Assembly: GCA_022825385.1 (NCBI GenBank)
Contig: JAJDWX010000038.1
Coordinates: 79,717-143,716, forward strand
Direction of reading: 5' to 3'
Source: Rhodothermales bacterium
GTDB taxonomy: Bacteria; Bacteroidota; Rhodothermia; Rhodothermales; VXPQ01
DNA: 64,000 nucleotides
Shown here: one piece after another, positions 2,105 to 22,377 of the stretch
Layout of the letters: the number at the start of each line of letters is the position of its first letter
How positions within the stretch are numbered: the first letter of the stretch is position 1
Made by a program: the position numbers and the translations under genes
The notes under the pieces: model-generated
What the model was told of the DNA's origin: nothing
Seen by the model: the letters and a program-made list of their open reading frames with translations, nothing else
The model's database searches: none

Positions 2105-2171
2105 CGTACCCATGCGCCTGTCCTGGAATGAAATACGCGCCCGCGCGGCGGAATTCGCCCGCGAATGGGAA
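2105..2171 (+). repeat. Direct repeat copy B (start-codon region of the intact MmeI-family gene)
   Basis: Partner of 387-453; see that feature. Confidence 0.9.
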
Positions 2172-4904
2172 GGTGCCGGGTACGAAAAGGGCGAAACGCA
2201 AAGTTTTTACGACAGTTTCTTCCGCATTTTCGGGGTCGAGCGGCGCAGCGTGGCTCGATACGAGGAGAACGTGAAAAAACTGGGGGATTCCAGCGGCTTC
2301 ATCGACCTTTTCTGGCCGGGCGTCCTGATTGTCGAGCAAAAAAGCGTCGGGCGGAATCTTGCCAAAGCGAAAAAACAGGCGGGCGAATATTTCGATGCGC
2401 TTCCCGAGCGGGATCGACCGCGCTATATTCTGGTCAGCGACTTCCAGACGTTCAAACTCCGCGATCTGGACGAGCGGGAAGAGGCCTCCTTTACGCTCGA
2501 AGCCCTGCCCGACCATGTGGAGAAGTTCGGCTTCATCCTCGGCGTACAGAAGCGTTCGTTCAAGGATCAGGACCCCGTCAACATCAAGGCCGCCGAGCTC
2601 GTGGGCAAACTCCACGACGCGCTCGAAGCCTCTGGCTACAAGGGGCACGATCTGGAGCGGTTCCTGGTCCGCATCGTGTTCTGCCTCTTCGCGGACGATA
2701 CGGGCATCTTCGAGCCCCGGGATATTTTTCTTGACCTGCTGGAAAACCGTGCGCGGGAAGACGGTTCGGACCTCGGCGGATGGCTCGCGCAACTCTTCCA
2801 GGTACTCGACACGCCGGAAGACGAACGCCCGAACAATCTTGACGAGGACCTTGCCCGCTTTCCCTATGTGAACGGGGCCCTTTTCGACGGGCCGCTCCGC
2901 ATTCCCTCTTTCGACGCCTCCATGCGGGAGCGCCTGCTCGACGCCTGCCGCTTCGACTGGTCGAATATCTCTCCGGCTATTTTCGGCTCCCTGTTTCAGT
3001 CTGTCATGGACAAGGACGAGCGGCGAAAGCAGGGCGCCCACTACACCACCGAGAAGAACATTCTCAAGGTTATCGAGCCGCTTTTCCTGGACGATCTTCG
3101 GGCGGAGTTTGCCCGGCTCAAGGCCCGCAAGGACAGCCGCCGCCTGCCGGAATTGCTCGCCTTCCAGCAGCGGCTCGGACGGTTGCGTTTCCTGGATCCT
3201 GCCTGCGGCTGCGGCAACTTCCTCATTATCGCCTACCGGGAGCTCCGCGAACTGGAAATCGAGGTACTGAAAGAAACCCGGCCCCGCAGGCAGGTCGATG
3301 TGCTGGCCAGTCTGCTTTCGGTGGTGAACGTCGATCAGTTCTACGGGATCGAACTGGGAGAATTTCCGGCCCGCATCGCGGAGGTGGCCCTGTGGATGAT
3401 GGATCACATCATGAACAACCGCCTCAGCCTGGAATTTGGGGAGACATACGTGCGCATTCCGCTGGAGACCTCGCCGCATATCGTGCATGGGGACGCGCTG
3501 GAGATGGATTGGGCCGACGCATTGCCCCCGGAAGATTGTTCGTACGTGCTCGGCAATCCGCCGTTCGGGGGGTTTGTCATGCGCATCCGGGAAAAGCAAA
3601 TACAGGCCAAGGCACTCATGGAAAGACTTGGAGCGTCAGGGTCGAGACTTGATTATGTCGCAGCATGGTTTCTCAAAGCGGGCGAATATTTTCGCGGAAA
3701 GCGCGCCCGGATCGGCTTTGTCGCCACCAATTCCATTACGCAGGGCGAGCAGGTTGCTCAGTTGTGGCCTGCTTTATTCGATCGCTACAACCTGGAAATC
3801 GCTTTTGTTCACCGCACGTTCGCCTGGGGCTCGGACGCGCGGGGCGTGGCGCATGTGCATGTGGTGATTATCGGGTTATCCGACCGGAAATCCATATCCG
3901 GCGGACGACGGTTATTCACATACCAGACACTGACAGAGGCCCCGCACGAGATTCAAGTGTCGGCCATCAGCCCATACCTGATTGACGGCGGTCACTTGAC
4001 GAATCCGCATCTTGTAATAAAAAGACAACGTGTGTCTATTAGCCATTTTCCAAAGATCGGCGTTGGGACGAAGCCCGTGGATGGCGGACATTACATTTTC
4101 CAGGAAAAGGAAAAAGCGGACTTCGTTGCACTGGAGCCTCAAGCCGCCGAGCTGCTGAGACCATTTGTCGGAGGCGCCGAATACATCAACGACAGAGCGC
4201 GCTGGATTCTTCACGTATCCGGTCAATCGCCAGCGCTCCTGCGTTCGTTGCCGAATGTCATGGACAGAATCCATACGGTCAGGCGTTATCGAACAGAGCA
4301 AGCCGGTCGATTGGGGCAGTCGCTCGCAGATCGCCCCACCGAGTATCACGTTTCCGTCATTCCGGAAACTTCATTCTTGGTTATCCCCGAAGTCAGTTCG
4401 GAACGCCGCCAGTATATCCCCATTGGCTGGTTGAACCCTCCCGCCATCCCGAGCAATCAATTGCTGGTCGTGGAAAATGCACGGCTTTGGCAATTCGCGC
4501 TGTTAACCTCTGCTATACACATGGCTTGGTTAAGATATATTGGCGGACGACTGAAAAGCGATTATCGCTATTCGAGTGGCCTCGTCTACAACACCTTCCC
4601 CGTACCGCCCGGCTTCCATACGGGTAGCCCGAGCGTCGCCAAACTGGAACCGCTTGCGCAGGCCGTGCTCGACGCCCGCGCCGCCCATCCCGACTCTTCT
4701 CTGGCCGATCTCTACGACCCAGACCTCATGCCGCCCAATCTCCGCAAGGCGCACCAAGCCCTCGACCGCGCCGTGGACCGGCTGTATCGCCGCAGCGGCT
4801 TCGCCAGCGAACGGGAGCGGGTGGAATATCTGCTGGGATTGTACGAGAAGATGATGGAGCCGCTGGTGGCGAAGGGGAAAATGAAACGGCGGCGAGGAAA
4901 ATGA
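2112..4904 (+). CDS. Type IIL (MmeI-family) restriction-modification enzyme: nuclease, N6-adenine methyltransferase and specificity domains in one chain
   Basis: 930 aa. N-terminal PD-ExK-like FIDLFWPGVLIVEQKS. SAM motif I FLDPACGCGNFL. Catalytic motif IV VLGNPPFGG. Size and N-terminus (RAAEFAREWEG...ETQSFYDSFF) match the MmeI family as I recall it. Confidence 0.85.
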   Translation: MRLSWNEIRARAAEFAREWEGAGYEKGETQSFYDSFFRIFGVERRSVARYEENVKKLGDSSGFIDLFWPGVLIVEQKSVGRNLAKAKKQAGEYFDALPERDRPRYILVSDFQTFKLRDLDEREEASFTLEALPDHVEKFGFILGVQKRSFKDQDPVNIKAAELVGKLHDALEASGYKGHDLERFLVRIVFCLFADDTGIFEPRDIFLDLLENRAREDGSDLGGWLAQLFQVLDTPEDERPNNLDEDLARFPYVNGALFDGPLRIPSFDASMRERLLDACRFDWSNISPAIFGSLFQSVMDKDERRKQGAHYTTEKNILKVIEPLFLDDLRAEFARLKARKDSRRLPELLAFQQRLGRLRFLDPACGCGNFLIIAYRELRELEIEVLKETRPRRQVDVLASLLSVVNVDQFYGIELGEFPARIAEVALWMMDHIMNNRLSLEFGETYVRIPLETSPHIVHGDALEMDWADALPPEDCSYVLGNPPFGGFVMRIREKQIQAKALMERLGASGSRLDYVAAWFLKAGEYFRGKRARIGFVATNSITQGEQVAQLWPALFDRYNLEIAFVHRTFAWGSDARGVAHVHVVIIGLSDRKSISGGRRLFTYQTLTEAPHEIQVSAISPYLIDGGHLTNPHLVIKRQRVSISHFPKIGVGTKPVDGGHYIFQEKEKADFVALEPQAAELLRPFVGGAEYINDRARWILHVSGQSPALLRSLPNVMDRIHTVRRYRTEQAGRLGQSLADRPTEYHVSVIPETSFLVIPEVSSERRQYIPIGWLNPPAIPSNQLLVVENARLWQFALLTSAIHMAWLRYIGGRLKSDYRYSSGLVYNTFPVPPGFHTGSPSVAKLEPLAQAVLDARAAHPDSSLADLYDPDLMPPNLRKAHQALDRAVDRLYRRSGFASERERVEYLLGLYEKMMEPLVAKGKMKRRRGK

Positions 4905-4976
4905 TCTCTGGCTAGCCCCATGGATGCAATTATCAGTAAAGCATAGGATTTCTTGAGAAAACTCGGCACTCGACAC

Positions 4977-6347
4977 ATGAGCAATAAAAATCCCCTTTTT
5001 TATATTCTCGCCGACGCGGTCGAATCAGAGTTGCAACCGCAGCGAATGATTGATCTACCCAATCTTTGCGATGCACTTGGTCTTCCCAATCCTCTGTATG
5101 AGTCAGGAACAAAGCGTGAGTATATCCGAAGCCGACTCGCCCCCCTTCGTCAAATGCCGGACGAAACTCAACCGGTCGCCCGGGAATTCACGAAACGCTA
5201 TCCTGTGGCCGAAGGAAATAGGGATACGTTCAAAATTGAAGAATTTCTCTGGAAAAATGAAAACTATCCGACCATCACGAAAAAACTTCGGCGAGAACTT
5301 GCTCAGGGATTTGAACAAGAATTTTTGCATTGCGATACCAACGAAATTCTTGCCGCCTTAGAAAAACTTTGGGTACTTCAAGATGAGTTGTATTCATGGA
5401 CCCCTGAAAATTCTCTCTATTTTCAATTCCAAGAATACTTCACCAATAATCCTCAAGGCTGGTCTGTTGAAAAATTTTTCCAGCAGCTCGGTGCTCTTGA
5501 ATGTTCCGACCTCCGATTCGGAAAGTTGATAGAAGCTCTGGTTGGCCCAGAGGTGCGCCCCAATGAGCAAAACCAACGGTCATTTGTTGCGGCAGCGAAC
5601 CGAGTGCTTCGCCTTCATGGTCTCGAACTTGTTGAGACAGGCGAGCAAGATGGATATCCAGCATTCTCTTTGCAGCAGACTGGAATCGGGGCTACTGGCC
5701 GCCCAAAAAATCTAATCTTTGCGTCACAAGTAAAGCCTGATCTTCGTTTTCGGGATGCAGTAAACAACGACATTGAAATCGTCACTGGAGCAGATAAAGT
5801 CTTAATATATGACTACCCTACTCCAACTGAAGGACTGCGTTGGCGTCATCTTCAAGCTTGGTGGGCAAAGTCCAAGGGACATGCGGATGAAGAAAAGGCT
5901 AAAAAGACACTCTACCGTCGCCTTCTGTCATCGCTACCGAAGAATTCGCCTCCCCAGAAACTTCTTTTCGAGACCTTCTTCAAGCACTTTGGCAAAGATA
6001 TACCAGATCTGCCTGCATTACTCCCCGAGGTGTGGCTGCACTACGATCCTCAAACGGTCAAACAGCGTGGTCGAGATGCGCTTTTGCGTCAGCGTATGGA
6101 TTTTTTGATACTGATTTCACACGGAACCAGAATCGTGTTGGAAGTTGATGGTGCTCGCCACTATTCGGATGATAATGGAAAGCCTTCACCTATTCGTTAC
6201 GCAGAAATGGTTGCGGCTGATCGAGAACTCAAACTACACGGATACGATGTGTACCGATTTGGTGGTAGTGAGCTTCAAGGCGTTGATGGAAAACAACTCC
6301 TAAAAACATTCTTTGACCATCTATTCGAAAAGCATAGAGTTCGTTAG
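4977..6347 (+). CDS. Hypothetical protein with a C-terminal DUF559/Vsr-like PD-(D/E)XK endonuclease domain; N-terminal ~370 aa unassigned
   Basis: ORF 4953..6347 starts at TTG; the first ATG is 4977 (MSNKNPLFYIL). The C-terminus RQRMDFLILISHGTRIVLEVDGARHY...AADRELKLHGYDVYRFGGSEL fits the DUF559 pattern (DF...E-x-DG-x-x-H...D-x-x-R...G-x-x-V-x-RF). A sampled line is about 40% G+C, much lower than the flanks. Confidence 0.65.
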   Translation: MSNKNPLFYILADAVESELQPQRMIDLPNLCDALGLPNPLYESGTKREYIRSRLAPLRQMPDETQPVAREFTKRYPVAEGNRDTFKIEEFLWKNENYPTITKKLRRELAQGFEQEFLHCDTNEILAALEKLWVLQDELYSWTPENSLYFQFQEYFTNNPQGWSVEKFFQQLGALECSDLRFGKLIEALVGPEVRPNEQNQRSFVAAANRVLRLHGLELVETGEQDGYPAFSLQQTGIGATGRPKNLIFASQVKPDLRFRDAVNNDIEIVTGADKVLIYDYPTPTEGLRWRHLQAWWAKSKGHADEEKAKKTLYRRLLSSLPKNSPPQKLLFETFFKHFGKDIPDLPALLPEVWLHYDPQTVKQRGRDALLRQRMDFLILISHGTRIVLEVDGARHYSDDNGKPSPIRYAEMVAADRELKLHGYDVYRFGGSELQGVDGKQLLKTFFDHLFEKHRVR

Positions 6348-6424: not shown

Positions 6425-7909
6425 ATGCCTCCCCGCAAGCAACATCCCTACAAAGACAGCGGGCAACCGATCCTCATGTGGTTTCGGCGCGACCTGCGGC
6501 TGACGGACAATCCCGCGCTGTCCTGGGCAATCCGAACCGGTCGGCCCGTCATCCCCGTTTTTATCCTGGATGAAGGTTCCGAAAGCCGTCCCTCGGGGGG
6601 CGCGTCCCGCTGGTGGCTACACGGCAGCCTCCACGCCCTGCACGGCGACCTGAAGAAACTGGGCAGCCGCCTCACTCTGCGCCGAGGCGCTTCCGGGGAA
6701 ACCATCGCCGCCCTGGCGCAGGAAACCGGCGCATCGACGATCGTATGGAACCGGCTTTACGATCCTAAAATCGTTCGGCGGGACGCGGAAATCCGGGCGC
6801 AGTGCGAAGCGGCGGGCGTCGGGATACGATCTTTCAATGCCGCGCTGCTCTTCGAACCCTGGACCATTCAAACAGGGAGCGGTTCGCCCTACCGGGTCTT
6901 CACGCCGTTCTGGCGGCGGTGCCTCGAACAGGGATTTGCGGTCCCCGAGACTGAAAAACCCGCCCCGGTTCCCCCCGCTTGCTGGCCAGCGACCGAAGCG
7001 CTTGATACATGGAACCTGCGATGTCATAATCCAGACTGGGCGGCAGGTTTTCGGAAGGCGTGGCGACCCGGAGAAGAAGGCGCCCGGGGGCGGCTCGCAG
7101 ATTTTCTGCGTAACGGCGCCGAAAAATACGCGACGAACCGGGACGCGCCGGGCAAACAAGGCACAAGCAGGCTGTCCCCCCATCTGCATTTCGGGGAAAT
7201 CGGGCCGCGCCAGATCGTTGCCGCGCTTGGCGGAATCGAGCCGGGGGCGGACAAGGACGCCTTCCTGCGGGAGATTGGCTGGCGGGAGTTCTGCCATCAT
7301 CTACTGTTCCACAACCCGAAGATGGAGCGAGTCAATATACGGCGCGAGTTCGACCGCATGCCCTGGCGGAACGACCCGGACGGCTTGCGGCGCTGGCAGC
7401 GCGGCCAGACCGGATATCCGCTGGTGGACGCAGGGATGCGCGAACTATGGACTACCGGCTGGATGCACAACCGGGTCCGCATGATCGCGGCGTCGTTTCT
7501 GACGAAGCATCTGCTGATCGACTGGCGGCATGGGGCGGACTGGTTCCTGGATACGCTGGTCGATGCGGATTTGGCCAACAACAGCGCCGGTTGGCAATGG
7601 ACCGCCGGGTGCGGCGCGGACGCAGCCCCGTACTTCCGCATATTCAATCCCGTCGCGCAATCACGGCGCTTCGACGCCGCCGGGGAATACCTGCGGACAT
7701 GGATCCCGGAACTCCGGCGACTGCCGGGCAAAGCAATTCATGCTCCGTGGCAAGCGCCGCCATCCGTTCTGGACAAGGCCGGAGTCCGACTCGGCGAAAA
7801 CTACCCCTGTCCCATCGTCGACCACGCCGAAGCCCGGAGGCGGGCGCTGGGTATCTATCGGAGGCGTATTCGGGGGATAGGGAAGGGAAGTCGAAACAGC
7901 TGCCAGTAA
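6425..7909 (+). CDS. phrB: Deoxyribodipyrimidine photolyase (class I CPD photolyase / cryptochrome family)
   Basis: MWFRRDLRLTDNPAL; TSRLSPHLHFGEI; GWREF; DADLANNSAGWQWTAGCGADAAPYFRIFNP. Confidence 0.9.
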   Translation: MPPRKQHPYKDSGQPILMWFRRDLRLTDNPALSWAIRTGRPVIPVFILDEGSESRPSGGASRWWLHGSLHALHGDLKKLGSRLTLRRGASGETIAALAQETGASTIVWNRLYDPKIVRRDAEIRAQCEAAGVGIRSFNAALLFEPWTIQTGSGSPYRVFTPFWRRCLEQGFAVPETEKPAPVPPACWPATEALDTWNLRCHNPDWAAGFRKAWRPGEEGARGRLADFLRNGAEKYATNRDAPGKQGTSRLSPHLHFGEIGPRQIVAALGGIEPGADKDAFLREIGWREFCHHLLFHNPKMERVNIRREFDRMPWRNDPDGLRRWQRGQTGYPLVDAGMRELWTTGWMHNRVRMIAASFLTKHLLIDWRHGADWFLDTLVDADLANNSAGWQWTAGCGADAAPYFRIFNPVAQSRRFDAAGEYLRTWIPELRRLPGKAIHAPWQAPPSVLDKAGVRLGENYPCPIVDHAEARRRALGIYRRRIRGIGKGSRNSCQ

Positions 7910-7964
7910 ACATGTACAGAGAATAGAGGCATACATTATTGATTACACGATTTTTTTGGACACA

Positions 7965-8616
7965 TCACATTCCAAGCCCTTCAAGTTGTTCCAGCCAAGC
8001 ATTAAAATGAGGACATATGGAGCGGATATTATCAAGACCGATCAAGGCGGCCATCTGCGGTCCTATGGTCGATTTCAGGTATTGATAGTCAGGAAATTGT
8101 TCAATAATTCTTTTCGATGGCGCGGTATGTTGGCCGTCGTTAATCAATTCTGGACATGTAGTCTTTCGTAAAGCCTTTTGCAAGATAGGTATTTTCTTTT
8201 TTGTCTCATCAAAAAATTGATCTAATAATGACAATTTCACAAATAAATAAGCCTCAAATTCATGCAATTGAATGAATGGAATAAAACGATCATCTTTTGT
8301 TTTTTCAAACCATGCCTTTTCAAGATTTTTTACACGTTCATAAGGAACATGACGTAATTTGTCAAATTCAGACAATTTGGGAAAATTTGGATGCAGGGCG
8401 TAAAGATCAATCATTGTAGTAAAAAACACATTGGCATTCGAATCTTCCTTAAGAGAACGTTCTATATCGTTCTGCATTGCTATGAAATTTTTTCCGCCTC
8501 CGCGATGAGTTTTTCCTTTTTTTCGGGCGTGGGCAATCAGGCGCGGTCGATTCATGTATACGCCGAATTGAGCCAGATGCGGTTTCAAGACCGTATCGGC
8601 GAATGTTTGCTCTGTT
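7965..8616 (-). pseudogene. DUF4276-family protein, 3' part (codons ~14-227) cut off from its 5' end by the cassette insertion
   Basis: ORF 7965..8588 begins at an internal TTG. The same frame upstream reads ...FSV*VPTEQTFADTVLKPHL, with stops inside the left TIR. Joining it to 10416-10455 rebuilds MARLYLFAEGQTEQTFADTVLKPHLAQFGVY..., a DUF4276-like N-terminus (EG-x-TE...PHL, from memory). Confidence 0.75.
8609..8616. repeat. Target-site duplication, left copy (GCTCTGTT)
   Basis: Identical 8-mer at 10416-10423. Each copy directly abuts a terminal inverted repeat. Confidence 0.85.
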
Positions 8617-8664
8617 GGGACTTATACGGAAAACTACCCAAAACATTCCTAAACCCCTATAAAA
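8617..8664. repeat. Left terminal inverted repeat (core 8617-8644; gapped similarity to ~8664)
   Basis: See the mobile_element entry. The extension shares CCCTATAAAA with the right end. Confidence 0.75.
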
Positions 8665-8713
8665 CAAAGACTTAAGAAAAGCATCCCCGTAAATCTTGAC
8701 TTTCCTATATCCG

Positions 8714-10297
8714 TTATTTTCCAACTACTGGATGCGCTTGCTTCGCCCTCTCGTCGTCAAGGAAACTACCCCAGGCTTTCCGACCTTTCCGGCTATTGCA
8801 GTTTCCGCAAAGCCCGATACGATTCAGTATATCGTCCGATCCTCCCCTTGACTTTGGAATAACGTGGTCCAAGTGTAAATCCACGTGCCTTGCTACGTGC
8901 TTTAAGGTGCAATAAGGATTACCACAAAGCTGGCCTTGTTTCTTCCATAATAACAATCTCATTTTATCAGCAGATATGTATTCAATATCTGTTCTCCTAG
9001 GTGAAGTTTTTTGTACTGTTACATATTCTAACCCTACGTGTTGATCCAGTCCAGATGTCTCCTGAAGTCGTTCGTTTGTCACGGTTTCCGCTTCAGGATC
9101 AATGTCAATGCCTATCCAGTTTCGCCGTTGCCTTTCGGCAGCTACACAGGTTGTAGCGCATCCACAGAATGGGTCAAGTACCAGATCGCCTTCGTTGCTG
9201 GATATTTTTATTATCCGTTCATAAAGTCCAACGGGTTTCTGAGTTTTCCATTCGGTTCTGACCAAAGAACGTGGTGGTAGCCATTTAACTTCTTCTTCAA
9301 TACCCTTTTTACTGCCGTACACAGTGCCTTCCGTATAGGGTTGATAAGCCCAAATATCATTTAAGACAACTCCATCTCTTTCATCCAGATAACGAACCAT
9401 AGTAGGCCAAGCATTACCTGGTTTTATTTCTATGAATCCCTTCTGGTACAGAGCTTCAAGTTTTTGAATAGGGGATAGTTGTAAATAAGCAGTATCCATA
9501 AACTGATTATAGTGCTTGGGAATGGCCCAGTGTCTGTCCTTTGGTTTGGGATCAAAGCCCCTCCAAGATTCGCACGATGGGCCGTCGGTTGCTCCTTGGC
9601 CCGTAAGGATGTTTCCACCCACAGTATAACGATAACGTTCGCCTTCCTTTTCATAATGCTCCTCTACGTGGCCCTTCATATACGGCTTCCGAACGATATT
9701 AAATGTGTATTTTTTGTTATGTTTATAGTAATAAAATATCGTATCGTGTTCGTTTCCTAACGACCTTGTACAATTTTTCGGAAGCTTACGCCAAATAATT
9801 TCAGAACCGAAATTATTTCTTCCAAATATAGCATCCAGTAATAAGCGAAGATAAGCGTTGGCCTCCCTATTGCAATGTAAATAAAGACTTCCGGTCGGTT
9901 TCAATATCCGGTGCATTTCTATCAAGCGTGGAGCCATCCACGCAAGAAACGCTGCTACGCTGTTTTTAGTTTTTCCAGTATCAATCTTTCCTGTATGCTT
10001 TTCAATGCTTCCGCTCTCAATGACTACAGCGGCTTCAATTAATTCCTTGATGGCTGGATGATCAGTAGCAATAAGATCGTGCCATTCATTAGTAACTTCA
10101 TCCCACTTCCAACGGTCGTCAAACTGTTGATTAGCCGCCTTACTTCCCATAGGCGCATTGTAAAGTCGCTTCGTATTAAACGGGGGATCTGTGGCTATCA
10201 GGTCAATGGATTCCGAGTTGATGCCTCGCATAACCCTCAGGTTGTCGCAGATGTACAGGGTACGGTTCTTGACGTTCGGTTCAGGGAGGGAGGGCAT
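8714..10297 (-). CDS. Beta-class N6/N4 DNA methyltransferase fused to a C-terminal HNH endonuclease domain
   Basis: 527 aa. Motif IV IATDPPFNT lies near the N-terminus and SAM motif I VLDPFCGCATT lies late, which is the beta-class order. C-terminal HNH: CGNPYC...HLDHVIPKSRGGSDDILNRIGLCGNCNSRKG. Confidence 0.85.
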   Translation of the reverse strand: MPSLPEPNVKNRTLYICDNLRVMRGINSESIDLIATDPPFNTKRLYNAPMGSKAANQQFDDRWKWDEVTNEWHDLIATDHPAIKELIEAAVVIESGSIEKHTGKIDTGKTKNSVAAFLAWMAPRLIEMHRILKPTGSLYLHCNREANAYLRLLLDAIFGRNNFGSEIIWRKLPKNCTRSLGNEHDTIFYYYKHNKKYTFNIVRKPYMKGHVEEHYEKEGERYRYTVGGNILTGQGATDGPSCESWRGFDPKPKDRHWAIPKHYNQFMDTAYLQLSPIQKLEALYQKGFIEIKPGNAWPTMVRYLDERDGVVLNDIWAYQPYTEGTVYGSKKGIEEEVKWLPPRSLVRTEWKTQKPVGLYERIIKISSNEGDLVLDPFCGCATTCVAAERQRRNWIGIDIDPEAETVTNERLQETSGLDQHVGLEYVTVQKTSPRRTDIEYISADKMRLLLWKKQGQLCGNPYCTLKHVARHVDLHLDHVIPKSRGGSDDILNRIGLCGNCNSRKGRKAWGSFLDDERAKQAHPVVGK

Positions 10298-10367
10298 TGT
10301 ATCGGTAGGGCTTTACGTGAAGGGGGTCAGAGAATATACGGTATTTTTTGGAAAGGTTATATCCGTT

Positions 10368-10415
10368 ATTTTTTATAGGGAAGATGGGGTTTGGATAGTT
10401 TTCCGTATAATTCCC
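10368..10415. repeat. Right terminal inverted repeat (core 10389-10415)
   Basis: Reverse complement matches the left TIR; see the mobile_element entry. Confidence 0.75.
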
Positions 10416-10423
10416 GCTCTGTT
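10416..10423. repeat. Target-site duplication, right copy (GCTCTGTT)
   Basis: Identical to 8609-8616 and abuts the right TIR. Confidence 0.85.
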
Positions 10424-10455
10424 TGTCCTTCTGCAAAGAGATAAAGCCGTGCCAT
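10416..10455 (-). pseudogene. DUF4276-family protein, 5' fragment (first 13 codons, MARLYLFAEGQTE)
   Basis: ATG at 10455-10453 shares its A with the ATPase stop TGA at 10457-10455 (TGATG). As it stands the frame runs into the TIR and stops after 29 codons (MARLYLFAEGQTERELYGKLSKPHLPYKK*, to 10366). Confidence 0.7.
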
Positions 10456-11555
10456 CAGTGGGGTCCTCCTCCAATAATATTCTTTTCCCAGATTTCGCCA
10501 AGCGAATAATCCTCCAGCCAGGCCTTCAATTTTTCGGCTTCTAATCTACAAAATTCAGTGGTTTTACCATTTCGTTCTACTGTCACTATATCTTCAGGTT
10601 CGAAATAGTCTACAAACGTACTGGATTGTGTACTGACGAGCACCTGCCTATAACGACTTGCCGCCTGAAACAACGATGCGACTACATTAAGCGCATAGGG
10701 ATGCAGACCAAGTTCCGGTTCGTCCACTACGATCACATAAGGGAGTTTTTCAACAGGTTGCAAAAGCAATGAAATTAAACAAATGGCTCGCAGTGTTCCG
10801 TCCGAAAGCTGATGGGGGCCAAATATTAGATCAGAAGATCGGTGCCGCCAGTTCAAAATAATATCTCTGGATTCAGTTTTTTCAAGAGAAAAATCTTCAA
10901 AAAAAGGTGCCACCTGTCGAATTGTTTGTACGATTCTATTATACCTCATTTCATTAGACGATTTAAGCTCATAAAGTACGGCTGCAAGATTTGCAGCATC
11001 AGGCATGAGCCATCGATTATCTTCAACATAGCAATATTGTCGAATTCTGGCCGTGGAAGATGTATCGTGAAAATGATATACGCGACATCTATTAAGCAAA
11101 TGATGTAATGCCTTTGCAGTTTCATTTTTTGACTCAACTGCCTCGACAATGCGTGTTTCTTGATGACCTGATTCAAGCGAAATTTCTTTGGGTTTTTCAT
11201 AACCTTCTTGATGATAAAATAGTTTCTCTTCAGCAAAAATCATAGAATCTCCAGCAGCATGAAAGAGCCTCATTTTATAGGTATTGGTACCGTTTTTTAC
11301 TTCAAACTGTATTTCCGCTTCAATTTGCGGAGTTATTTTGGGGCCAAAATGTAAATTAGCTGTTGCACGGCCTGTTGATCCAATATATTGCTGAAACCGC
11401 CCTCCCATCAATTCATTGATTAATTTAAAAAAAGCAATAAGATTACTTTTACCTGCTCCATTAGCTCCAATCAAAACATTCAGAGACCGAAATGTTAACC
11501 GAGTTTCCTGAATGGATCGAAAGCCCTTGATTGTAATGTAATTCAGTTTCGCCAT
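10455..11555 (-). CDS. ABC-type (AAA_15/AAA_21-like) ATPase, partner of the DUF4276 gene
   Basis: The ORF 10455..11570 start is TTG; ATG at 11555 gives MAKLNYITIKGFRSI. Walker A LIGANGAGKSN. ABC-signature-like LSDGTLR. Walker B/D-loop VIVVDEPELGLHP. H-loop-like VSTQSS. Confidence 0.85.
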   Translation of the reverse strand: MAKLNYITIKGFRSIQETRLTFRSLNVLIGANGAGKSNLIAFFKLINELMGGRFQQYIGSTGRATANLHFGPKITPQIEAEIQFEVKNGTNTYKMRLFHAAGDSMIFAEEKLFYHQEGYEKPKEISLESGHQETRIVEAVESKNETAKALHHLLNRCRVYHFHDTSSTARIRQYCYVEDNRWLMPDAANLAAVLYELKSSNEMRYNRIVQTIRQVAPFFEDFSLEKTESRDIILNWRHRSSDLIFGPHQLSDGTLRAICLISLLLQPVEKLPYVIVVDEPELGLHPYALNVVASLFQAASRYRQVLVSTQSSTFVDYFEPEDIVTVERNGKTTEFCRLEAEKLKAWLEDYSLGEIWEKNIIGGGPH

Positions 11556-12038
11556 CTTGCTTGCAGCCAATGTCTCTTGCGATGCTTCTTACTTAGGGCT
11601 TTTCTGCATTTACCAAGGAACGCGAACGCCATTACTGACAGGATACGCCTCTATCCGTTCTAAAATAAGCACCGAAAGGTGAAAGGTAGCCCAAGGCTGC
11701 CCATGCCAGCGAGGAAAACAAGAAATCCGCGGACCTGCTTCGTTTCCGTATTCATACGATTGGGAGCATTGGATGACAAGGATGTACAACGGAGGTAGTG
11801 CTTATAGTATACGGAAGGCGATATATTTTTGCAAATTCTTTATTTTTTATCATAAATTATTGAAATACATGGATTTACACACAATACTACTGTCTATATT
11901 CCCGCGCTCCGCCTCTCATTATCCCCTCCCCCGTCTCCCTTGCAAAGCCGGGCAGTACGTCCGGTCTCCCAGCCAATCCATCGCCTCGATAAGCATGAGG
12001 AATGCCTGGCAAGACACAATTCCCGGCTTTAATACATT

Positions 12039-13594: not shown

Positions 13595-15061
13595 ATGACC
13601 ACCCACCATTCCAGCGACTACCTGACCGATCTGGTGAGCGAATTGTGCAATTTGTCCAGCGAGACCGAGTGGGTGGAGTTCAAGGAAAATAATGCAGATC
13701 CGGAAACTATCGGCAAAAACATCTCTGCATTGGCTAATTCAGCAGCGCTGGAGGGCAAGGCGTTCGCGTATATCGTTTGGGGTATTCGGGACCAGGACCA
13801 TGCGGTGGTTGGCACAACCTTTACTCCGCGTCGGGAACGTCGCGGCAATGAAGAATTGGAAAACTGGTTACTGCGCCTTCTCGAACCAAGGATTGATTTC
13901 CGATTCTTTAACGCCACGATAGACGCCAAACCCGTCGTTCTTCTTGAAATCGCAAGGCCTACGGGCCAGCCTGTGAGTTTTTCCGGTGTAAAATATATCC
14001 GTGTGGGCAGTTACACGAAAAATCTGAAGAGTTTTTCTGAAAAAGAACGGGCGCTATGGCGCATCTTCGACCAAACCCCCTTTGAAGACGGCATCGCCGC
14101 TGAGCGCCGGCGGGACGAGGATGTCTTGAAATTACTTGATTATCCAGCCTACTTCGATTTGCTGGAAGCGCCGCTTCCGGAGAATCGAGACGCTATTTTG
14201 TCTGTTCTGGCTAACGATAACATTATTCGCCGATCCGAAGCAAGCGGCTGGGACGTTACCAACCTCGGGGCTTTGCTTCTTGCCAGGCGGCTAGCTGATT
14301 TTGGACGTCTGGGGCGTAAAGCGGTCCGCGTGATACAGTATAAAGGCGCCGGGCGCATCGAAGCCATGAAAGAACGGGAAGAAGCAAAAGGATATGCGTG
14401 TGGCTTTAATGGATTGATTAGCTACATCAGCGGCATGCTGCCCTCCAATGAAGTAATCGATCAGGCTTTGCGGGTGACGGTACCCATGTTCCCTGAGGTG
14501 GCTGTGCGAGAATTACTGGCGAATGCGCTCATTCATCAGGATTTTTCGATTACTGGCGCGGGGCCGATGTTCGAGATTTTCGATGATCGGCTCGAAATCA
14601 CCAATCCCGGCGAACCCCTTGTAGCCACAGAACGCTTCGTGGATACGCCGCCGAAATCGCGCAACGAGGCCCTGGCTTCGCTCATGCGGCGGTTTGGCAT
14701 TTGCGAGGAGCGCGGCAGCGGGGTGGACAGAGTTGTGACGGAAATAGAGATTTTCCAGCTTCCGGCGCCGCTTTTCGAAGCGCCGGAGGGATTTACGCGC
14801 GCTGTTCTTTTTGCACATAAACCTCTGGCCAAAATGGACAAGGCGGATCGCATGCGAGCTTGTTATCTGCACGCTTGCCTGAAGTACGTTATGCGCGATT
14901 TCCTTACCAATGCTTCCTTACGAAAGCGTTTCGGCGTGGAAGACGGGAATAAATCAATTGTATCCCGCTATATCAAGGAGGCGGTAGAGGAAAATTTAAT
15001 CAAGCCATATGCCCCCGGCGCGTCGCGCAGAATGATGCGATATGTCCCCCACTGGGCCTGA
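13595..15061 (+). CDS. AlbA_2 + HATPase_c_4 protein, second paralog
   Basis: SETEWVEFKENNADPETIGKNISALANSAALEG is AlbA_2-like. ELLANALIHQDF...LEITNPG is the HATPase_c_4 motif. Same architecture as 549..1895. Confidence 0.8.
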   Translation: MTTHHSSDYLTDLVSELCNLSSETEWVEFKENNADPETIGKNISALANSAALEGKAFAYIVWGIRDQDHAVVGTTFTPRRERRGNEELENWLLRLLEPRIDFRFFNATIDAKPVVLLEIARPTGQPVSFSGVKYIRVGSYTKNLKSFSEKERALWRIFDQTPFEDGIAAERRRDEDVLKLLDYPAYFDLLEAPLPENRDAILSVLANDNIIRRSEASGWDVTNLGALLLARRLADFGRLGRKAVRVIQYKGAGRIEAMKEREEAKGYACGFNGLISYISGMLPSNEVIDQALRVTVPMFPEVAVRELLANALIHQDFSITGAGPMFEIFDDRLEITNPGEPLVATERFVDTPPKSRNEALASLMRRFGICEERGSGVDRVVTEIEIFQLPAPLFEAPEGFTRAVLFAHKPLAKMDKADRMRACYLHACLKYVMRDFLTNASLRKRFGVEDGNKSIVSRYIKEAVEENLIKPYAPGASRRMMRYVPHWA

Positions 15062-17962: not shown

Positions 17963-20900
17963 TCAGCGTTTGATTACGGCCTCGTCGAAATTCATCATGG
18001 TGTTGGCGACCACCGTCAGGGCAGCCAGTTGCGCCGGGTCCAGGCGTTCGTCCCGAGGATACTCGCCGACGGCGAGCAAATCCAGCGCGCTCCCGCGGTC
18101 GGACTCGAAAGCGCGCAGTTCCTCTTCGTACAGCGTGGCAAGCAACGCCACCTCTTCGGCGTCGGGCGGGCGGCTGGTGAGCAGGCGATATCCCCGCGCG
18201 ATTTGCGCCCGGACGCCCCCCTCCTCTTCCCGCAACAACCGCTCCGCCAGCAAGCGGCTGGCCTCCACATACTGGGGATCGTTCAATAACACCAGCGCTT
18301 GCAAGGGCGTACTCGTGCTTTGCCTCCGGACGGTGCAAATGTTGCGCTCCGACGCATCGAAATTCATCATCGACGGGGGCGGCGTAGTGCGTTTCCAGAT
18401 GGTGTACATGCTGCGCCGATAGAGATCGTCCCCCTCGTCCTGCTTGTATTCCGTCGCATTGCGCGTAGCCAGTTCTTTCCAGAGGCCCGCCGGCTGATAG
18501 GGCTTGACGGGCGGTCCGCCGATTTCGTCCACAAGCAGGCCGCTGGCGGCCAGCGCATGGTCTCGTATCATCTCGGCGGGCATTCGGTAGGCAGGTCCGC
18601 GCGCCAGCAGCGTATTGTCCGGGTCCTTTTCAAGCAGGTCCGGGCCGGCCACGGAACTTTGCCGATACGCGGCGGAAGTAACGATCCGTTTTTGCAGGGC
18701 CTTGACGTCCCAATCCATCTCCACGAACGCGGTGGCGAGCCAGTCCAGCAGTTCGGGATGGGTGGGGAGCGCGCCCTGACTGCCGAAATCGTCTGGCGTG
18801 GAGACCAGTCCATGGCCGAAATACATTTGCCAGTAGCGGTTCACGATAACCCGCGCGAACAGGGGGTTGTCCGGGTCCGTGAGCCACCGGGCAAGGCCCA
18901 TGCGGTTGCGGGGAAGGTCGTCCGCAAACGGCAGAACGGCGACCGGCGTGGCGCGCTCCACCCGCCGCGTGGGCGCGTCGTACTGTCCACGATCCAGAAT
19001 GTAGGTAGGCCGGGGTTTGGCCCTGTCCCGCATCGCCATGACTTCGGGCAGCAACGAGGCGATCTCGTTTTCTTCTCCCCGAATCCTCGTGAGTTCGGCG
19101 AAATCCTCCGCGTACTGCGGCGCTTCGGTCGTGACGTAATAATCGCGCAGGGCGGCGCGGCGGGCCTCGGCGGACAACTCCGGCTCCGCCTGGCCCTGGA
19201 CGGCGGCGGCCTCCAGGGCCGTGAGGCGGCGGTCGTAGATGCGGAATTCGTCCACGGCGACGCTATCGAGCCGGGGCGAATTGTGCCCGAAAAAACCGAT
19301 GCGCAGGTTGCCCGAACGGGCCGGATCGGTCGGCTCGCCCGTCGTGGGATCGATGGTGAAGAGGATGCTTTGCTTCAGGTTGTCCACCTCGACTTCGGCG
19401 GCCATGCGCTCGCCGTCGAGATAGAGGGCCAGCCCGTCCGCCCGGCTGGACCCGTCGTACGTCATCGTAATATGGTTCCACTGGTCCGCGGGAACCGGGT
19501 CGAGCGAGCGGATCCGGATGGAATTGTCCGGGGCGACCCGGTTGACGCTGGCCGAAATGGTGCCGTCTTCCTCCAGTACGCAGAGATACCCCTGGCGCCC
19601 GTTAAAAAGGCCGTCGGTCCGGGCGAATAGCGGCCCCGACGCCTCGCCAAGAATTCGGAACCACAGGCTGACGCTAAAGGGTTCGTTCCGCTCGAAATAA
19701 TAGCGGTTCGGCCCCATATCGAGCATGCCGTCCCCTTGCAGCGCAAGCGCCGAATCGAAGCGGCCCGGCGCCGCGACGGGCAGTTTGTCTATATCCCCGG
19801 AAAAATAGCCGCGGGCGTCCGGCTCCGTCCGGTTTTCCAGATAGAAAACCTCGTCTCCGTTGTCGTTTTCCCCCGGTTCGAAGCCGTCAAACGGGTAATG
19901 GCCGACAAGCCCCTGGGGCGCCACCTCCCGCCGACCGGCCTCGAACTCGGTCAGCCAGCGCGCGAACCCCTCGTCGAACGCCGGATGGTCTATGGCCGTT
20001 TTTGCTTCGTAGGCCGCGATCTGCGCGCGCAGCGGAGCCAGTTTTTCCCGCGCTTCCTCGTCCTCCAGAATCACAGTGGGGCTTGCCACGCCAGAGTACG
20101 GGGAGGCCCCGGATTCGTTTACGCTGTTGAAAAAATCGAATAACTGGTAGTACTCCTCCTGGCTGACGGGATCGAATTTGTGGTCGTGGCAGCGGGCGCA
20201 TTCCATGGTTAGCCCCAGAAACGCCGTCCCGAAGGTGTTCGTGCGGTCCGCCACGTATTCCACCCGATATTCTTCGAGCACGATGCCCCCCTCCTGACTC
20301 TGGAGGTGGTTTCGGTTAAAACCCGTAGCCAGCCGCTGCTCGACCGTCGGGTCCGGATACAAATCCCCCGCAAGTTGCCAGGTCGCGAATTCGTCGAAGG
20401 GCAGGTTCTCGTTGAATGCCTTGATGACCCAGTCCCGCCAGGGCCACATGTTGCGCAAGCCGTCGTCCTGGTACCCATGGCTGTCGGCGTACCGGGCCAC
20501 GTCCAGCCATTCCGTCGCCATGCGTTCCCCGTAGGCCGGGGAGGCCAAGAGCCGGTCCACCGCTTTTTCGTAGGCGTTCTCGTCCGTATCCGCCAGGAAC
20601 GCATCGATCTCTTCGAGCGTGGGCGGCAGCCCGGTAAGGTCGAACGTAACGCGGCGAAGCAGGGTCTCTTTGGCCGCTTCCGGCGCGGGATGCAAGCCTT
20701 CGCGTTCCAGCCGGTCGAGAATAAAATAATCTATGCCGTTGCGAGGCCAGGACGGGTCGTCTGTTTCGGGAAGCTCCGGCTTCTCGGGCGGAATAAACGC
20801 CCAGTGCGGCTTGTATTCGGCGCCCTGCTCGATCCATTTGAGAATCATGGCGACTTCTTCCGGCGCGACGTGCAGGTTCGACTCCGCCGGGGGCATCCTG

Positions 20901-21235
20901 TAGTCCGGGTCTTCGGACACGAGGCGGTGGAATATTTCGCTCTTCTTCAGGCTGCCGGGGGACAGCGCGAACTTGCGGCGGCTTTCGCTAAGGCGCAGGA
21001 AGGCGCCCTCCTCCGTGTCCAGCCGGAAATCCGTGGCGCGGGCGTTGTCGTCCGGGCCGTGGCAGGGAAAGCACCGGTCCGACAAGATGGGCTTCACATG
21101 GAAATTGAAGTCCACCCGCTCCGGCAGTTTGTCCGCGCTGGCGGCTACCGAGGCGGGCGCGTCGGGCGCGCACCCCGTCAGGCAGAAGAAGCCTGCAAGC
21201 AGGGCGGCGCCGAGAAACAGGTCCCGAAGCCTCAT
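17963..21235 (-). CDS. PSCyt1/DUF1549/LamG-like/DUF1553 (PSD1) multidomain lipoprotein
   Basis: ORF trimmed to ATG 21235 (MRLRDLFLGAALLAGFFCLTGC, lipobox); ATG 21271 is an alternative. CFPCHGPDDNARATDFRLD is a planctomycete cytochrome c motif. CARCHDHKFDP. Typical C-terminal DUF1553 region. Confidence 0.85.
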   Translation of the reverse strand: MRLRDLFLGAALLAGFFCLTGCAPDAPASVAASADKLPERVDFNFHVKPILSDRCFPCHGPDDNARATDFRLDTEEGAFLRLSESRRKFALSPGSLKKSEIFHRLVSEDPDYRMPPAESNLHVAPEEVAMILKWIEQGAEYKPHWAFIPPEKPELPETDDPSWPRNGIDYFILDRLEREGLHPAPEAAKETLLRRVTFDLTGLPPTLEEIDAFLADTDENAYEKAVDRLLASPAYGERMATEWLDVARYADSHGYQDDGLRNMWPWRDWVIKAFNENLPFDEFATWQLAGDLYPDPTVEQRLATGFNRNHLQSQEGGIVLEEYRVEYVADRTNTFGTAFLGLTMECARCHDHKFDPVSQEEYYQLFDFFNSVNESGASPYSGVASPTVILEDEEAREKLAPLRAQIAAYEAKTAIDHPAFDEGFARWLTEFEAGRREVAPQGLVGHYPFDGFEPGENDNGDEVFYLENRTEPDARGYFSGDIDKLPVAAPGRFDSALALQGDGMLDMGPNRYYFERNEPFSVSLWFRILGEASGPLFARTDGLFNGRQGYLCVLEEDGTISASVNRVAPDNSIRIRSLDPVPADQWNHITMTYDGSSRADGLALYLDGERMAAEVEVDNLKQSILFTIDPTTGEPTDPARSGNLRIGFFGHNSPRLDSVAVDEFRIYDRRLTALEAAAVQGQAEPELSAEARRAALRDYYVTTEAPQYAEDFAELTRIRGEENEIASLLPEVMAMRDRAKPRPTYILDRGQYDAPTRRVERATPVAVLPFADDLPRNRMGLARWLTDPDNPLFARVIVNRYWQMYFGHGLVSTPDDFGSQGALPTHPELLDWLATAFVEMDWDVKALQKRIVTSAAYRQSSVAGPDLLEKDPDNTLLARGPAYRMPAEMIRDHALAASGLLVDEIGGPPVKPYQPAGLWKELATRNATEYKQDEGDDLYRRSMYTIWKRTTPPPSMMNFDASERNICTVRRQSTSTPLQALVLLNDPQYVEASRLLAERLLREEEGGVRAQIARGYRLLTSRPPDAEEVALLATLYEEELRAFESDRGSALDLLAVGEYPRDERLDPAQLAALTVVANTMMNFDEAVIKR

Positions 21236-21561
21236 AGACAGGGGCGGCGCAGGGGCGCGAGCGTTTTCCATTGCATTGTTATCGCGGATAGTCCAGCCAA
21301 AATAATAGGGAATGCGAACCTTTGATGAAAGAGGACGGAGAAATTTCGCCTTGGCGGGGGCTTGGGGGAACCGGTCGGCGGCGGGGGGCAGGGTTTTTAG
21401 CACGTTAGGGACAAAACGTGACTGCCGGGTCGTTGAAATACCCGGAGGCACAACACAGGGCCATTCGTTCGCGCCTGTGCCTGCCTTACGCCAAAAACAG
21501 CAGTCCTCGAGCTGTGCCCGCATCGCGTATATTCCCCCATGGCTGCACAAGCGAAAGCCAT

Positions 21562-22377
21562 TCATTCAGAAAGTTCTTGCCGAACGGCGCCCGAAGGTCC
21601 CTCGTACCAGCGTTCGAGATACATTTCGACGAAACCGGGATGCTTTGAAGCAAGGGCGGCGACCATAGGTTTGAGATCGGCGTCGCCGAGGGAGGAAGCA
21701 AGAAACATAGCCGAAAGCTGAAGAGAATGGGCAAAAGAATCATACTCAAGATATTCTGGAATATATCCCTGTATATAGCGAATAGACAATTCGCGCAGCG
21801 TAGCGTGCGTCGAGGAATCTAACGGACGCCATCTTTCTACGGTTCTCGCAAGAGCGAGAAAAGCGCCATTCAATTCCTGTAAGGTGCGTTCGGAAGATTC
21901 AAGATAATCGAGTATCACGGGAAAGATGCGAGGACCGAACTCCGCAAGGCCAAGCGGAGCCATGCCGCCGAACTGAGACGCCTTCAGAAGAATCGGTATA
22001 GCCCGTTCATCTTCGAGCGCAGCCACGGAATATATCAACGGCTCAAGCAGCTCCTGAATATGATCGTCATCGTCAAAACCAGGATAGCCGGCGAGATTCA
22101 GATCGCACTGACTGTCGAGGGCGGCAATCAACCCATCGGCTATGAGAGGATCTACGCCACGACGAAGCCTATCGATTTTTTCTCTGGAGTATCCCCCAAT
22201 TACATGATAAACGGCTGCGTCGATCCTGTAAGGATCTCCGCTATGAAGCTCCATGGCGAGCGCGGCGGCCGAAGGCGCAGCGGCTTTCTGTTCCTGCGCT
22301 AGGCAAGAAGGCGAAAAGAAAAAAAGAACGATCAAAAAGATCGTTGCAAAGAGCAGGAAGCGAATCAAGGTGGTCAT
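21562..22377 (-). CDS. Secreted hypothetical protein, HEAT-like helical repeats
   Basis: Signal peptide MTTLIRFLLFATIFLIVLFFFSPSCLAQE. DERAIPILLKA-type HEAT-like segment. Directly downstream of the M15 lipoprotein gene. Confidence 0.6.
   Translation of the reverse strand: MTTLIRFLLFATIFLIVLFFFSPSCLAQEQKAAAPSAAALAMELHSGDPYRIDAAVYHVIGGYSREKIDRLRRGVDPLIADGLIAALDSQCDLNLAGYPGFDDDDHIQELLEPLIYSVAALEDERAIPILLKASQFGGMAPLGLAEFGPRIFPVILDYLESSERTLQELNGAFLALARTVERWRPLDSSTHATLRELSIRYIQGYIPEYLEYDSFAHSLQLSAMFLASSLGDADLKPMVAALASKHPGFVEMYLERWYEGPSGAVRQELSE

Follow-up and report, generated by a model that had tools for sequence, protein, structure and literature searches.

How does a gene that joins a DNA methyltransferase (MTase) and an HNH nuclease in one chain come to stand by itself between two inverted repeats, behind an ATPase gene, and what might it do there? 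The question is raised by a 64,000-nucleotide stretch of contig JAJDWX010000038.1 from a Rhodothermales bacterium (hereafter the window, with positions counted from its first letter). A sequence-only reading of this DNA had proposed that an MTase-HNH fusion is the sole cargo of a mobile cassette, and that the cassette has landed in a putative defence operon. We find that 1799 bp of the window, at 8617-10415, make up a non-autonomous transposable unit of the mobile insertion cassette (MIC) type, whose sole gene is the MTase-HNH open reading frame (ORF).

The cassette has a GC content of 43%, compared to 60% for the 64-kb window. It is bounded by terminal inverted repeats (TIRs) of 26 nt, complementary at 24 of the 26 positions (92%): GGGACTTATACGGAAAACTACCCAAA at 8617-8642 on the plus strand, next to the 3′ end of the cargo gene, and its partner GGGAATTATACGGAAAACTATCCAAA (in gene orientation) at 10390-10415 on the minus strand, upstream of the gene. 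The two ends of the cassette read GGGAATTATACGG... and GGGACTTATACGG.... Directly outside both TIRs lies the same 8-mer, GCTCTGTT, at 8609-8616 on the left and 10416-10423 on the right, a perfect 8-bp target-site duplication (TSD). The TIRs occur nowhere else in the window, and 100 shuffles gave no match. Neither an ORF nor a Pfam match is present in the 3′ untranslated part of the cassette (8643-8713, minus strand), and none of the other ORFs inside the element has a Pfam match. No IS1595 transposase was detected, either in the element by Pfam or in the 64-kb window by tblastn with IS1595 transposases.

An exact comparison with empty sites shows that the unit between the TIRs is mobile and has the fusion as its only cargo. 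A protein 100% identical to the ATPase of the window (P0123) is present on two metagenome contigs, L095 and L096, where the ATPase gene is followed by an intact 227-aa DUF4276 gene, the two overlapping by ATGA/TGATG, and where the 8-mer is found once. The wider synteny of both contigs is the same as in the window (photolyase, MmeI-type enzyme). Using blastn, positions 363-3284 of L095 align with 13341-10416 of the window (95.8% identity), and positions 3277-3955 with 8616-7938 (96.8%). In L095 these two blocks overlap by exactly 8 nt, which are the target AACAGAGC (gene orientation) in single copy. We conclude that the window and L095/L096, which come from strains about 96% identical, form a true filled/empty-site pair.

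The comparison also places the insertion precisely. Directly upstream of the cassette is the intact gene of an ABC-type ATPase (10455-11570, minus strand), which matches the PADLOC model for HEC-01A with an E-value of 7e-145. Its stop codon is overlapped by the ATG of a severed 5′ fragment of HEC-01B, MARLYLFAEGQTE... (10416-10455, minus strand), identical to the start of the intact DUF4276 gene of L095 and L096. The 3′ remainder of HEC-01B (DUF4276/TOPRIM) lies on the other side of the cassette, at 7965-8616 on the minus strand. Its longest ORF, 7965-8588, starts at a TTG codon at 8588, has lost the first 20 residues and matches PADLOC HEC-01B/DUF4276 with an E-value of 5e-60; an in-frame TAA within the TIR stops read-through from the element, and TTG 8588 is the sole possible start. 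When the element and one 8-mer were removed in silico, an ORF was restored that starts with MARLYLFAEGQTEQTFADTV followed by LKPHL..., and whose ATG overlaps the ATPase stop codon (TGATG). The Pfam DUF4276 profile is covered from 1 to 192 in this reconstructed protein, versus 14 to 192 in the window ORF. The idea that the cassette had landed in a putative defence operon was therefore right as far as a candidate system, HEC-01, is concerned, and its position can be given more exactly: the element sits within the HEC-01B coding sequence, at codons 11-14, where it truncates the gene and removes the N-terminal EGQTE motif. In TOPRIM domains, the catalytic glutamate sits in the first conserved motif. 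With this first motif being catalytic and the EGQTE segment lost, loss of HEC-01B function is likely, and the insertion likely inactivates HEC-01. Since HEC-01B is split, the window lacks the intact A and B genes that define the candidate system, which L095 and L096 possess.

A second suggestion, that the ATPase followed by an HNH protein could be miscalled as Septu by automated tools, held for the adjacency, which is created by the insertion, but the miscall itself appears weakly founded. The ATPase is HEC-01A and reaches 32 bits with the NCBIfam PtuA model, compared to a cutoff of 500 bits, and the HNH region matches the PtuB models with E-values of 3e-4 to 8e-3 only. Septu was rejected as an assignment.

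We then turn to the cargo. The gene lies at 8714-10297 on the minus strand, starts with ATG and encodes 527 aa; read on the plus strand, the same interval is a frame full of stops. Pfam and sequence agree on the fusion and on the motifs quoted for it by the sequence-only reading. The beta-class N6/N4 methyltransferase domain covers residues 31-407 (9077-10207, minus strand; Pfam N6_N4_Mtase PF01555, E-value 3.8e-44), with IATDPPFNTKR at residues 33-43 (DPPF at 36-39) and VLDPFCGCATT at 372-382 (DPFCGCATT at 374-382). Motif IV comes ahead of motif I, which is the circularly permuted order of the beta class. A DPPF motif, as opposed to SPPY/F, points to N6-adenine, and the enzyme is probably a sequence-specific N6-adenine MTase. 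At the C-terminus, the motif HLDHVIPKSRGG...CGNCNSRKG is present in a Zn-finger HNH nuclease domain that occupies residues 457-506 (8780-8929, minus strand; PF01844, PF14279); the Pfam matches to HNH (PF01844, residues 462-506, E-value 2.6e-9) and HNH_5 (PF14279) together span residues 462-508 and are both above cutoff.

To see which residues are kept, 34 members of the family, 50-68% identical to the window protein, were aligned. DPPF and DPFxGC are invariant in all of them. So are D476, H477, N491, N500 and K503 of the HNH domain, as well as the four zinc cysteines C457, C462, C496 and C499, meaning that the HNH catalytic residues and metal ligands are intact. By homology to the HNH domains of IscB and Cas9, D476, H477 and N500 would form the D-H...N catalytic set. 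In sharp distinction to these cores, residues ~165-345 (9263-9805, minus strand) make up a hypervariable target recognition domain (TRD), which falls into several unrelated types among the 34 sequences; the type found in the window recurs in two otherwise divergent members, P0024 and P0029. An AlphaFold model of the protein (predicted local distance difference test score of 73) was compared to known structures with Foldseek. The best matches were EcoP15I Mod, M.BceJIV, M.MboIIA and M.RsrI, and the C-terminus weakly matched the HNH domain of McrA. The HNH region is most similar to those of IscB, Cas9d and a group II intron maturase. Sequence and fold searches of the PDB returned MTase and generic HNH matches only, and no solved MTase-HNH fusion. 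Finally, the ratio of nonsynonymous to synonymous substitution rates (dN/dS) is 0.07-0.17 among three near-identical copies of the gene (window versus L093 and L094, see below), which indicates that it is under purifying selection.

The fusion is not peculiar to the window. The best 120 matches to the whole protein are 45-68% identical to it, and nearly all carry both Pfam domains; the linker and HNH region taken alone matches about 25 representatives of 50%-identity clusters with E-values of 1e-14 or below. Many members come from metagenome-assembled genomes (MAGs) of sponge symbionts, and the names in public records are limited to 'DNA methyltransferase', 'hypothetical protein' and 'HNH nuclease domain-containing protein'. 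At four loci (L029, L037, L061 and L074) an apparent second ORF of the MTase-HNH type lies downstream of the first; such ORFs could be paralogues in tandem, an arrangement that would suit asymmetric sites at which each strand needs its own enzyme.

The closest annotated relatives from phages and plasmids have a different architecture. They lack the HNH domain and have, at the same C-terminal position, an Mrr_cat-like domain of restriction endonuclease (REase) fold. Members include Mycobacterium phage Amgine gp37 and Streptomyces phage Hippo gp48, besides genes of actinobacterial and rhizobial plasmids. This sister family is 33-43% identical to the window protein over residues 7-416, TRD region included. 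The presence of different nuclease folds on one MTase scaffold argues that the C-terminal module is functionally important. The C-terminal domain of the sister family scores best with the Pfam 'inactive REase' model, above Mrr_cat, and has S-x-K in place of the (E/Q)-x-K of Mrr. The Amgine and Hippo genes (L097 2501-4132 and L098 2465-4108) are those of temperate actinophages, lie near integrase genes, have a C-terminal domain that is Mrr_cat/NA-iREase1-like and are annotated only as 'methyltransferase'; each may be a defence or counter-defence gene expressed from the prophage.

Where does the cassette come from? The nearest relatives of the cargo are found next to a transposase. P0002 (68% identical) is encoded directly downstream of an IS1595-family transposase, P0003 (65%) adjoins a 34-residue C-terminal remnant of an IS1595 transposase, and P0010 (53%) is present on 5 contigs, each with the order transposase, MTase-HNH, 55-aa ORF. 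The P0010 unit has 30-nt TIRs (GGGAATTATATACG... / GGGAATTATATACGTGAG...) and, at two different sites, the 8-bp TSDs AAAATTTA and CTTTTTTT. The transposases of the relatives pass the NCBIfam model for IS1595 (PF12762 / NF033547 type). A scan of metagenomes with the family alignment yielded 80 further loci, and 90 loci were used in the counts; a scan of genome contigs with the single protein yielded at least one locus, L003. An IS1595 transposase stands beside the methyltransferase gene at 28 of the 90 loci. It is present in 9 of the 36 HNH-containing loci that extend for 1.3 kb or more on each side, and is upstream and on the same strand in 15 of the 54 loci with enough upstream sequence. It is the sole recurrent neighbour family (26 loci), and no conserved partner (Res, REase, ATPase or C-protein) was found next to the family in the 90 loci. 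Moreover, pairwise identities of transposases and cargoes are correlated (Spearman 0.74; 15 loci, 105 pairs), which indicates that the two have long travelled together.

The ends tell the same family. At L003 (a Rhodothermales MAG), L023 and L059 we could delimit complete elements, 2.6-3.1 kb in length, that have GGGAATTATA... ends and 8-bp TSDs; L038, L062 and L073 have the same ends and no detected TSD, the contigs of the last two being exactly one element each. The end type is GGGA(A/C)TTATA..., also written GGGA(A/C)TTATACGG or GGGA(A/C)TTATACGGAAAAC, and L062, for instance, has GGGAATTATACGCG. The window TIRs have their first 10 nt in common with the TIRs of transposase-bearing L003, L006-L009, L038, L059 and L062, and the agreement with the ends of the delimited elements covers 10-12 nt. 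The exact cassette TIR had no match in viral contigs or in the 96 fetched loci, and the window element is the only TIR and TSD unit without a transposase in this sample. We take it to be a transposase-less derivative of IS1595-family elements, in which the MTase-HNH cargo is commonly found beside the transposase. Its assignment to the ISNwi1 subgroup of IS1595, whose ends in ISfinder are 'ggnnatTAT', is putative. An apparent MAFFT similarity of the cassette leader to the leaders or intergenic parts of L004, L007, L038, L059, L062 and L094 was dropped, as local alignment gave z-scores of 2.2 at most relative to shuffles.

Other features of these elements deserve mention. A second IS1595 subgroup, with ends CGGAATTAGTAG... 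/ CGGAATTAGTAGTTATGGGCTT and 8-bp TSDs, was found at L084 4316-6975, L085 104-2772 and L087 1926-4767. Its cargo is a related methyltransferase of 536-562 aa in which no HNH region was detected by tblastn, so that carrying a methyltransferase seems to be more widespread in the IS1595 family. Complete elements also contain small ORFs (55, 61 and ~100-140 aa), which have no Pfam match and are absent from the window cassette. Those of 55 aa (L007 6524-6691) and 61 aa (L004 2355-2540) have an AT-hook-like 'RGRP...(E/N)IAKAIL..PP' motif and may encode a regulator. In L003 (3652-4665, 6055-7490) the element is 5.8 kb long and decaying, with a nested ISL3 transposase and an MTase-HNH gene split into 383 and 88 aa.

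The two loci used above for dN/dS, L093 and L094, encode proteins of the same cluster as the window protein (aa identity of 90% or more; 93-97%, with the same TRD) and allow the history of the cargo to be looked at separately from that of its chassis. Identity to the window cargo at the DNA level is 92% for L093 and 97% for L094, and is restricted to the coding sequence. On the 3′ side (L093 1632-1701 and L094 1708-1787, compared to window 8617-8713), similarity breaks off exactly at the stop codon, and the 3′ flanks of both loci lack homology to the 3′ part of the cassette; on the 5′ side similarity ends about 20 nt upstream of the ATG. A related terminus, ...TTGTATATAACTCCC, closes both loci, with a different flank behind it in each; on both contigs the 5′ end is missing. 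Near-identical cargo is therefore present at no fewer than three genomic sites, inside TIRs with differing interiors, which suggests that the cargo ORF has been swapped between related IS1595 chassis by recombination. The genes further away also differ. A PSCyt1/PSCyt2/PSD1 protein is encoded at 17963-21565 of the window (minus strand), and a Por_Secre_tail protein at L093 7351-9632. The former domains are typical of Planctomycetota and Verrucomicrobiota, and the latter of Bacteroidota. This hints that the cargo has recently passed between distantly related hosts within the same sampling project.

A further observation concerns direct repeats of 15-16 nt in the cassette, ATATACGGTATTTTTT / ATATCCGTTATTTTTT / TATATCCGTTATTTT, at 10334-10349, 10359-10374 and 8706-8720. 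The first two, both of 16 nt and 25 nt apart, are in the 92-nt 5′ leader of the cassette (10298-10389, minus strand), and the third copy overlaps the stop codon of the MTase-HNH gene, so that an exact 15-mer pair flanks the ORF. These repeats may be a binding site, or a recombination scar of cargo exchange. A scan for sigma-70 promoters and terminators did no better than with shuffles, and the window gave no match in Rfam and tRNA scans.

Why did the cassette land in HEC-01B? The HEC-01 genes form a patch of 38-40% GC in a 60% GC genome, and the TSDs of the delimited elements are AT-rich: besides AAAATTTA and CTTTTTTT, they are AAAAATAT, ATAATTTG, AATTTCAT, TATCATTT and TTTTATTT. A preference for AT-rich targets, together with the low-GC patch, would explain the choice of site. 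Such a preference would also steer IS1595 elements into low-GC, horizontally acquired defence islands, though a single event is no proof of targeting.

Putting these data together, we consider it rather probable that the cassette is an IS1595-derived, transposase-less element with a one-chain restriction-modification (R-M) enzyme as its cargo. Either a cognate IS1595 transposase from another part of the genome would have mobilised it in trans, or its own transposase would have been lost once it was inserted. The variable TRD would select a DNA motif, the MTase would mark resident DNA, and the HNH domain would nick or cut DNA with unmethylated motifs. Such an activity would give the element that carries it a selective handle, by host defence or by post-segregational addiction, and would account for the joint travel and co-evolution of the gene with IS1595 transposases. 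As to the cargo taken on its own, we lean only slightly towards its being a self-contained one-chain R-M enzyme, a reading made plausible by the invariant catalytic residues, the hypervariable TRD, the absence of a partner gene and the purifying selection.

Several points weigh against the proposal. Type IIG one-chain enzymes have a gamma-class MTase, whereas that of the window protein is beta-class (PMC4081073). A transposase is lacking at about 70% of the sampled family loci. None with matching ends turned up in the window, the fetched loci or the viral contigs, and present-day mobility is accordingly no more than putative; in addition, the non-coding parts of the cassette have no significant similarity to the full elements. 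HEC-01, a PADLOC candidate made of an ABC ATPase and a TOPRIM/DUF4276 protein, the latter with an OLD-like metal site, gave no phage protection in its original test (bioRxiv 10.1101/2024.01.29.577857), so that the 'defence operon' stays a candidate. Last, the 'inactive REase' match and the S-x-K motif of the sister family make a non-catalytic, accessory role of the C-terminal domain conceivable.

This last point leads to the alternative that survives best, and which we nevertheless hold unlikely. The cargo would be an orphan sequence-specific MTase used for marking or anti-restriction, with the HNH domain as an accessory DNA-binding or targeting module, and the gene would be a neutral or anti-restriction passenger. 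The sister REase-fold domain, for which the 'inactive REase' model beats Mrr_cat, is in keeping with it, as are the annotation of the closest phage and plasmid relatives simply as methyltransferases and the 'DNA methyltransferase' or 'hypothetical' names of the family. However, D476, H477, N491, N500 and the four zinc cysteines are invariant over 34 diverged sequences, and dN/dS is low. Hypervariable TRDs are typical of R-M enzymes, unlike orphan MTases of the Dam or CcrM type, and the hypervariability seen here would fit turnover of R-M specificity rather than a regulatory orphan MTase.

A second alternative, quite doubtful in our eyes, is that the MTase-HNH protein serves the transposon itself, by retention or homing, or by tying transposition to how the ends are methylated. 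In the former case it would cut element-free or unmethylated copies and so force repair from a copy with the element, as TnpB and IscB do in IS200/IS605 elements, and the HNH domain is, as said, most similar to those of IscB, Cas9d and group II introns. Cargo and transposase, tightly linked in compact 2.6-3.1-kb elements, co-evolve (Spearman 0.74), which would suit such a service. In its most explicit form, an improbable one, the fusion would be a retention or drive module of IS1595 elements that marks the DNA of cells or replicons with the element and cuts unmarked DNA, thereby forcing repair from a copy with the element or killing segregants; if true, the TnpB/IscB mechanism would have a methylation-guided counterpart made of protein only, and the window cassette would be a minimal 1.8-kb 'selfish R-M gene' that can spread when a transposase acts in trans. 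Yet most sampled family loci are without a transposase, and purifying selection acts on the window cargo although its cassette lacks a transposase in cis. A hypervariable TRD is hard to square with the recognition of a conserved feature of the element. Furthermore, near-identical cargo with the same TRD occurs between different TIR interiors, meaning that the TRD is not tracking element ends. Finally, the notion that the TIRs are incidental or regulatory palindromes in an ordinary operon of three genes (ATPase, MTase-HNH, DUF4276), all on the minus strand and of similarly low GC, with nothing mobile, is refuted by the empty-site alleles with their ATPase, intact 227-aa DUF4276 gene and single 8-mer, and is further opposed by the splitting of a conserved Pfam domain and by the same end type and 8-bp TSDs around transposase-bearing relatives at many sites.

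How does the favoured reading, a transposase-less IS1595 derivative carrying a one-chain R-M enzyme, compare with known elements? Insertion sequences (IS) that carry passenger genes are known as transporter IS (Siguier, Gagnevin & Chandler 2009, as cited in PMC3129680, PMC11891212 and PMC2853133). Transporter IS with methyltransferase passengers have been described, the example cited belonging to the IS1380 family (PMC11891212). As in IS1595 transporter IS, the window element has GGGA(A/C)TTATA ends and an 8-bp TSD, and its complete relatives place the passenger downstream of the transposase; it differs from autonomous IS1595 elements by having no DDE transposase. A source in such a transporter IS fits what we see of the ends and relatives (for the concept, PMC11891212). 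With MICs, such as MIC231 of Bacillus cereus (De Palmenaer et al. 2004, cited in PMC3129680), the cassette shares the bounding TIRs, the lack of a transposase, the passenger gene, the TSD and the existence of transposase-encoding relatives. MIC231 derives from IS231/IS4, whereas the window cassette derives from IS1595, and its mobilisation in trans is putative.

The nearest precedents for R-M genes in such a setting are the units of Furuta, Abe & Kobayashi (2010), which are flanked by inverted repeats (IRs) and have 8-bp TSDs and empty sites, among them a Type II unit of X. oryzae (PMC2853133). In a unit of N. gonorrhoeae the IRs have 26 bp, a homologue of Type IIG enzymes is present and the COG3677 transposase has decayed (PMC2853133). 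R-M genes or solitary M genes flanked by IS elements have also been observed according to these authors, who cite four papers for it, including the IS1595 paper (PMC2853133). Our cassette resembles these units: an R-M-type gene is enclosed by IRs, the TSD has 8 bp, and a relative has the empty site. It differs in its cargo, a single beta-class MTase-HNH chain, and in its target, which is inside a candidate defence gene. The link of MTase-HNH to one IS family is, moreover, recurrent and co-evolving over many metagenomic lineages.

At the level of the protein, Type IIG enzymes (MmeI, BcgI, etc.) combine a gamma-class MTase with a usually N-terminal PD-(D/E)XK domain (PMC4081073). In domain architecture only, the window protein is like Type IIG/IIC enzymes, with nuclease and MTase in one chain and one specificity module, a TRD that varies and cores that are fixed. 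It differs by its beta-class, Mod-like MTase and its C-terminal HNH domain, so that at best it would work like a Type IIG/IIC enzyme, and by definition is no member of that group. The fold is closest to EcoP15I Mod of Type III systems, but no Res-like partner is present in the cassette or at the 90 loci. In the sister family of Amgine gp37 and Hippo gp48, the nuclease fold is PD-(D/E)XK-like and possibly inactive, and the contexts are phages and plasmids. The literature that we searched contained no description of an MTase-HNH fusion as an IS1595 passenger. Within that literature, the one-chain beta-class MTase-HNH architecture appears to be undescribed, and so do the recurrent, co-evolving pairing of MTase-HNH with IS1595 and the transposase-less single-gene cassette.

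If the cargo is a working one-chain R-M enzyme, the cassette would be close to the smallest natural mobile R-M unit, with 1.8 kb, one gene and two 26-bp ends. The filled/empty polymorphism would then offer a clean test system for the 'selfish R-M' idea of Kobayashi and colleagues. A beta-class MTase joined to an HNH nuclease, with swappable TRDs, would likewise be a new combined R-M scaffold outside the gamma-class definition of Type IIG, and might supply new specificities. The recurrent, co-evolving partnership with IS1595 shows that defence-like genes are shuttled by insertion sequences too, besides phages, plasmids and islands. At the locus studied here, one mobile defence-like gene disrupts the effector of another candidate system, and automated defence annotation would report HEC-01A as an orphan, HEC-01B as truncated and the cargo as an 'MTase'. 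This is a neat, experimentally tractable case that comes with an uncharacterised enzyme family, and no conceptual surprise.

The locus is surrounded by a defence island, with a full-length MmeI-type Type IIG enzyme (2112-4904; PADLOC, 1141 bits), an AbiJ-like protein and HEC-01. The AbiJ-like gene, at 4953-6347 between the photolyase and the MmeI-type gene, is of low GC and encodes an AbiJ_NTD3 protein of 464 aa; at the corresponding position of L095 (6467-7131) only a 75-aa ORF is found. Conversely, L095 and L096 have a DUF1828 gene between HEC-01B and the photolyase, which is absent from the window (7886-7938, compared to L095 3955-4981). The island also includes two proteins with Schlafen/AlbA_2 and HATPase_c_4 domains (528-1895 and 13595-15061), one of them with a winged helix-turn-helix domain. 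Further away, at 22500-23500, a second sharp low-GC patch (0.39-0.41) lies in the gene of a 466-aa Peptidase_M15_3 protein, and may be another recent acquisition.

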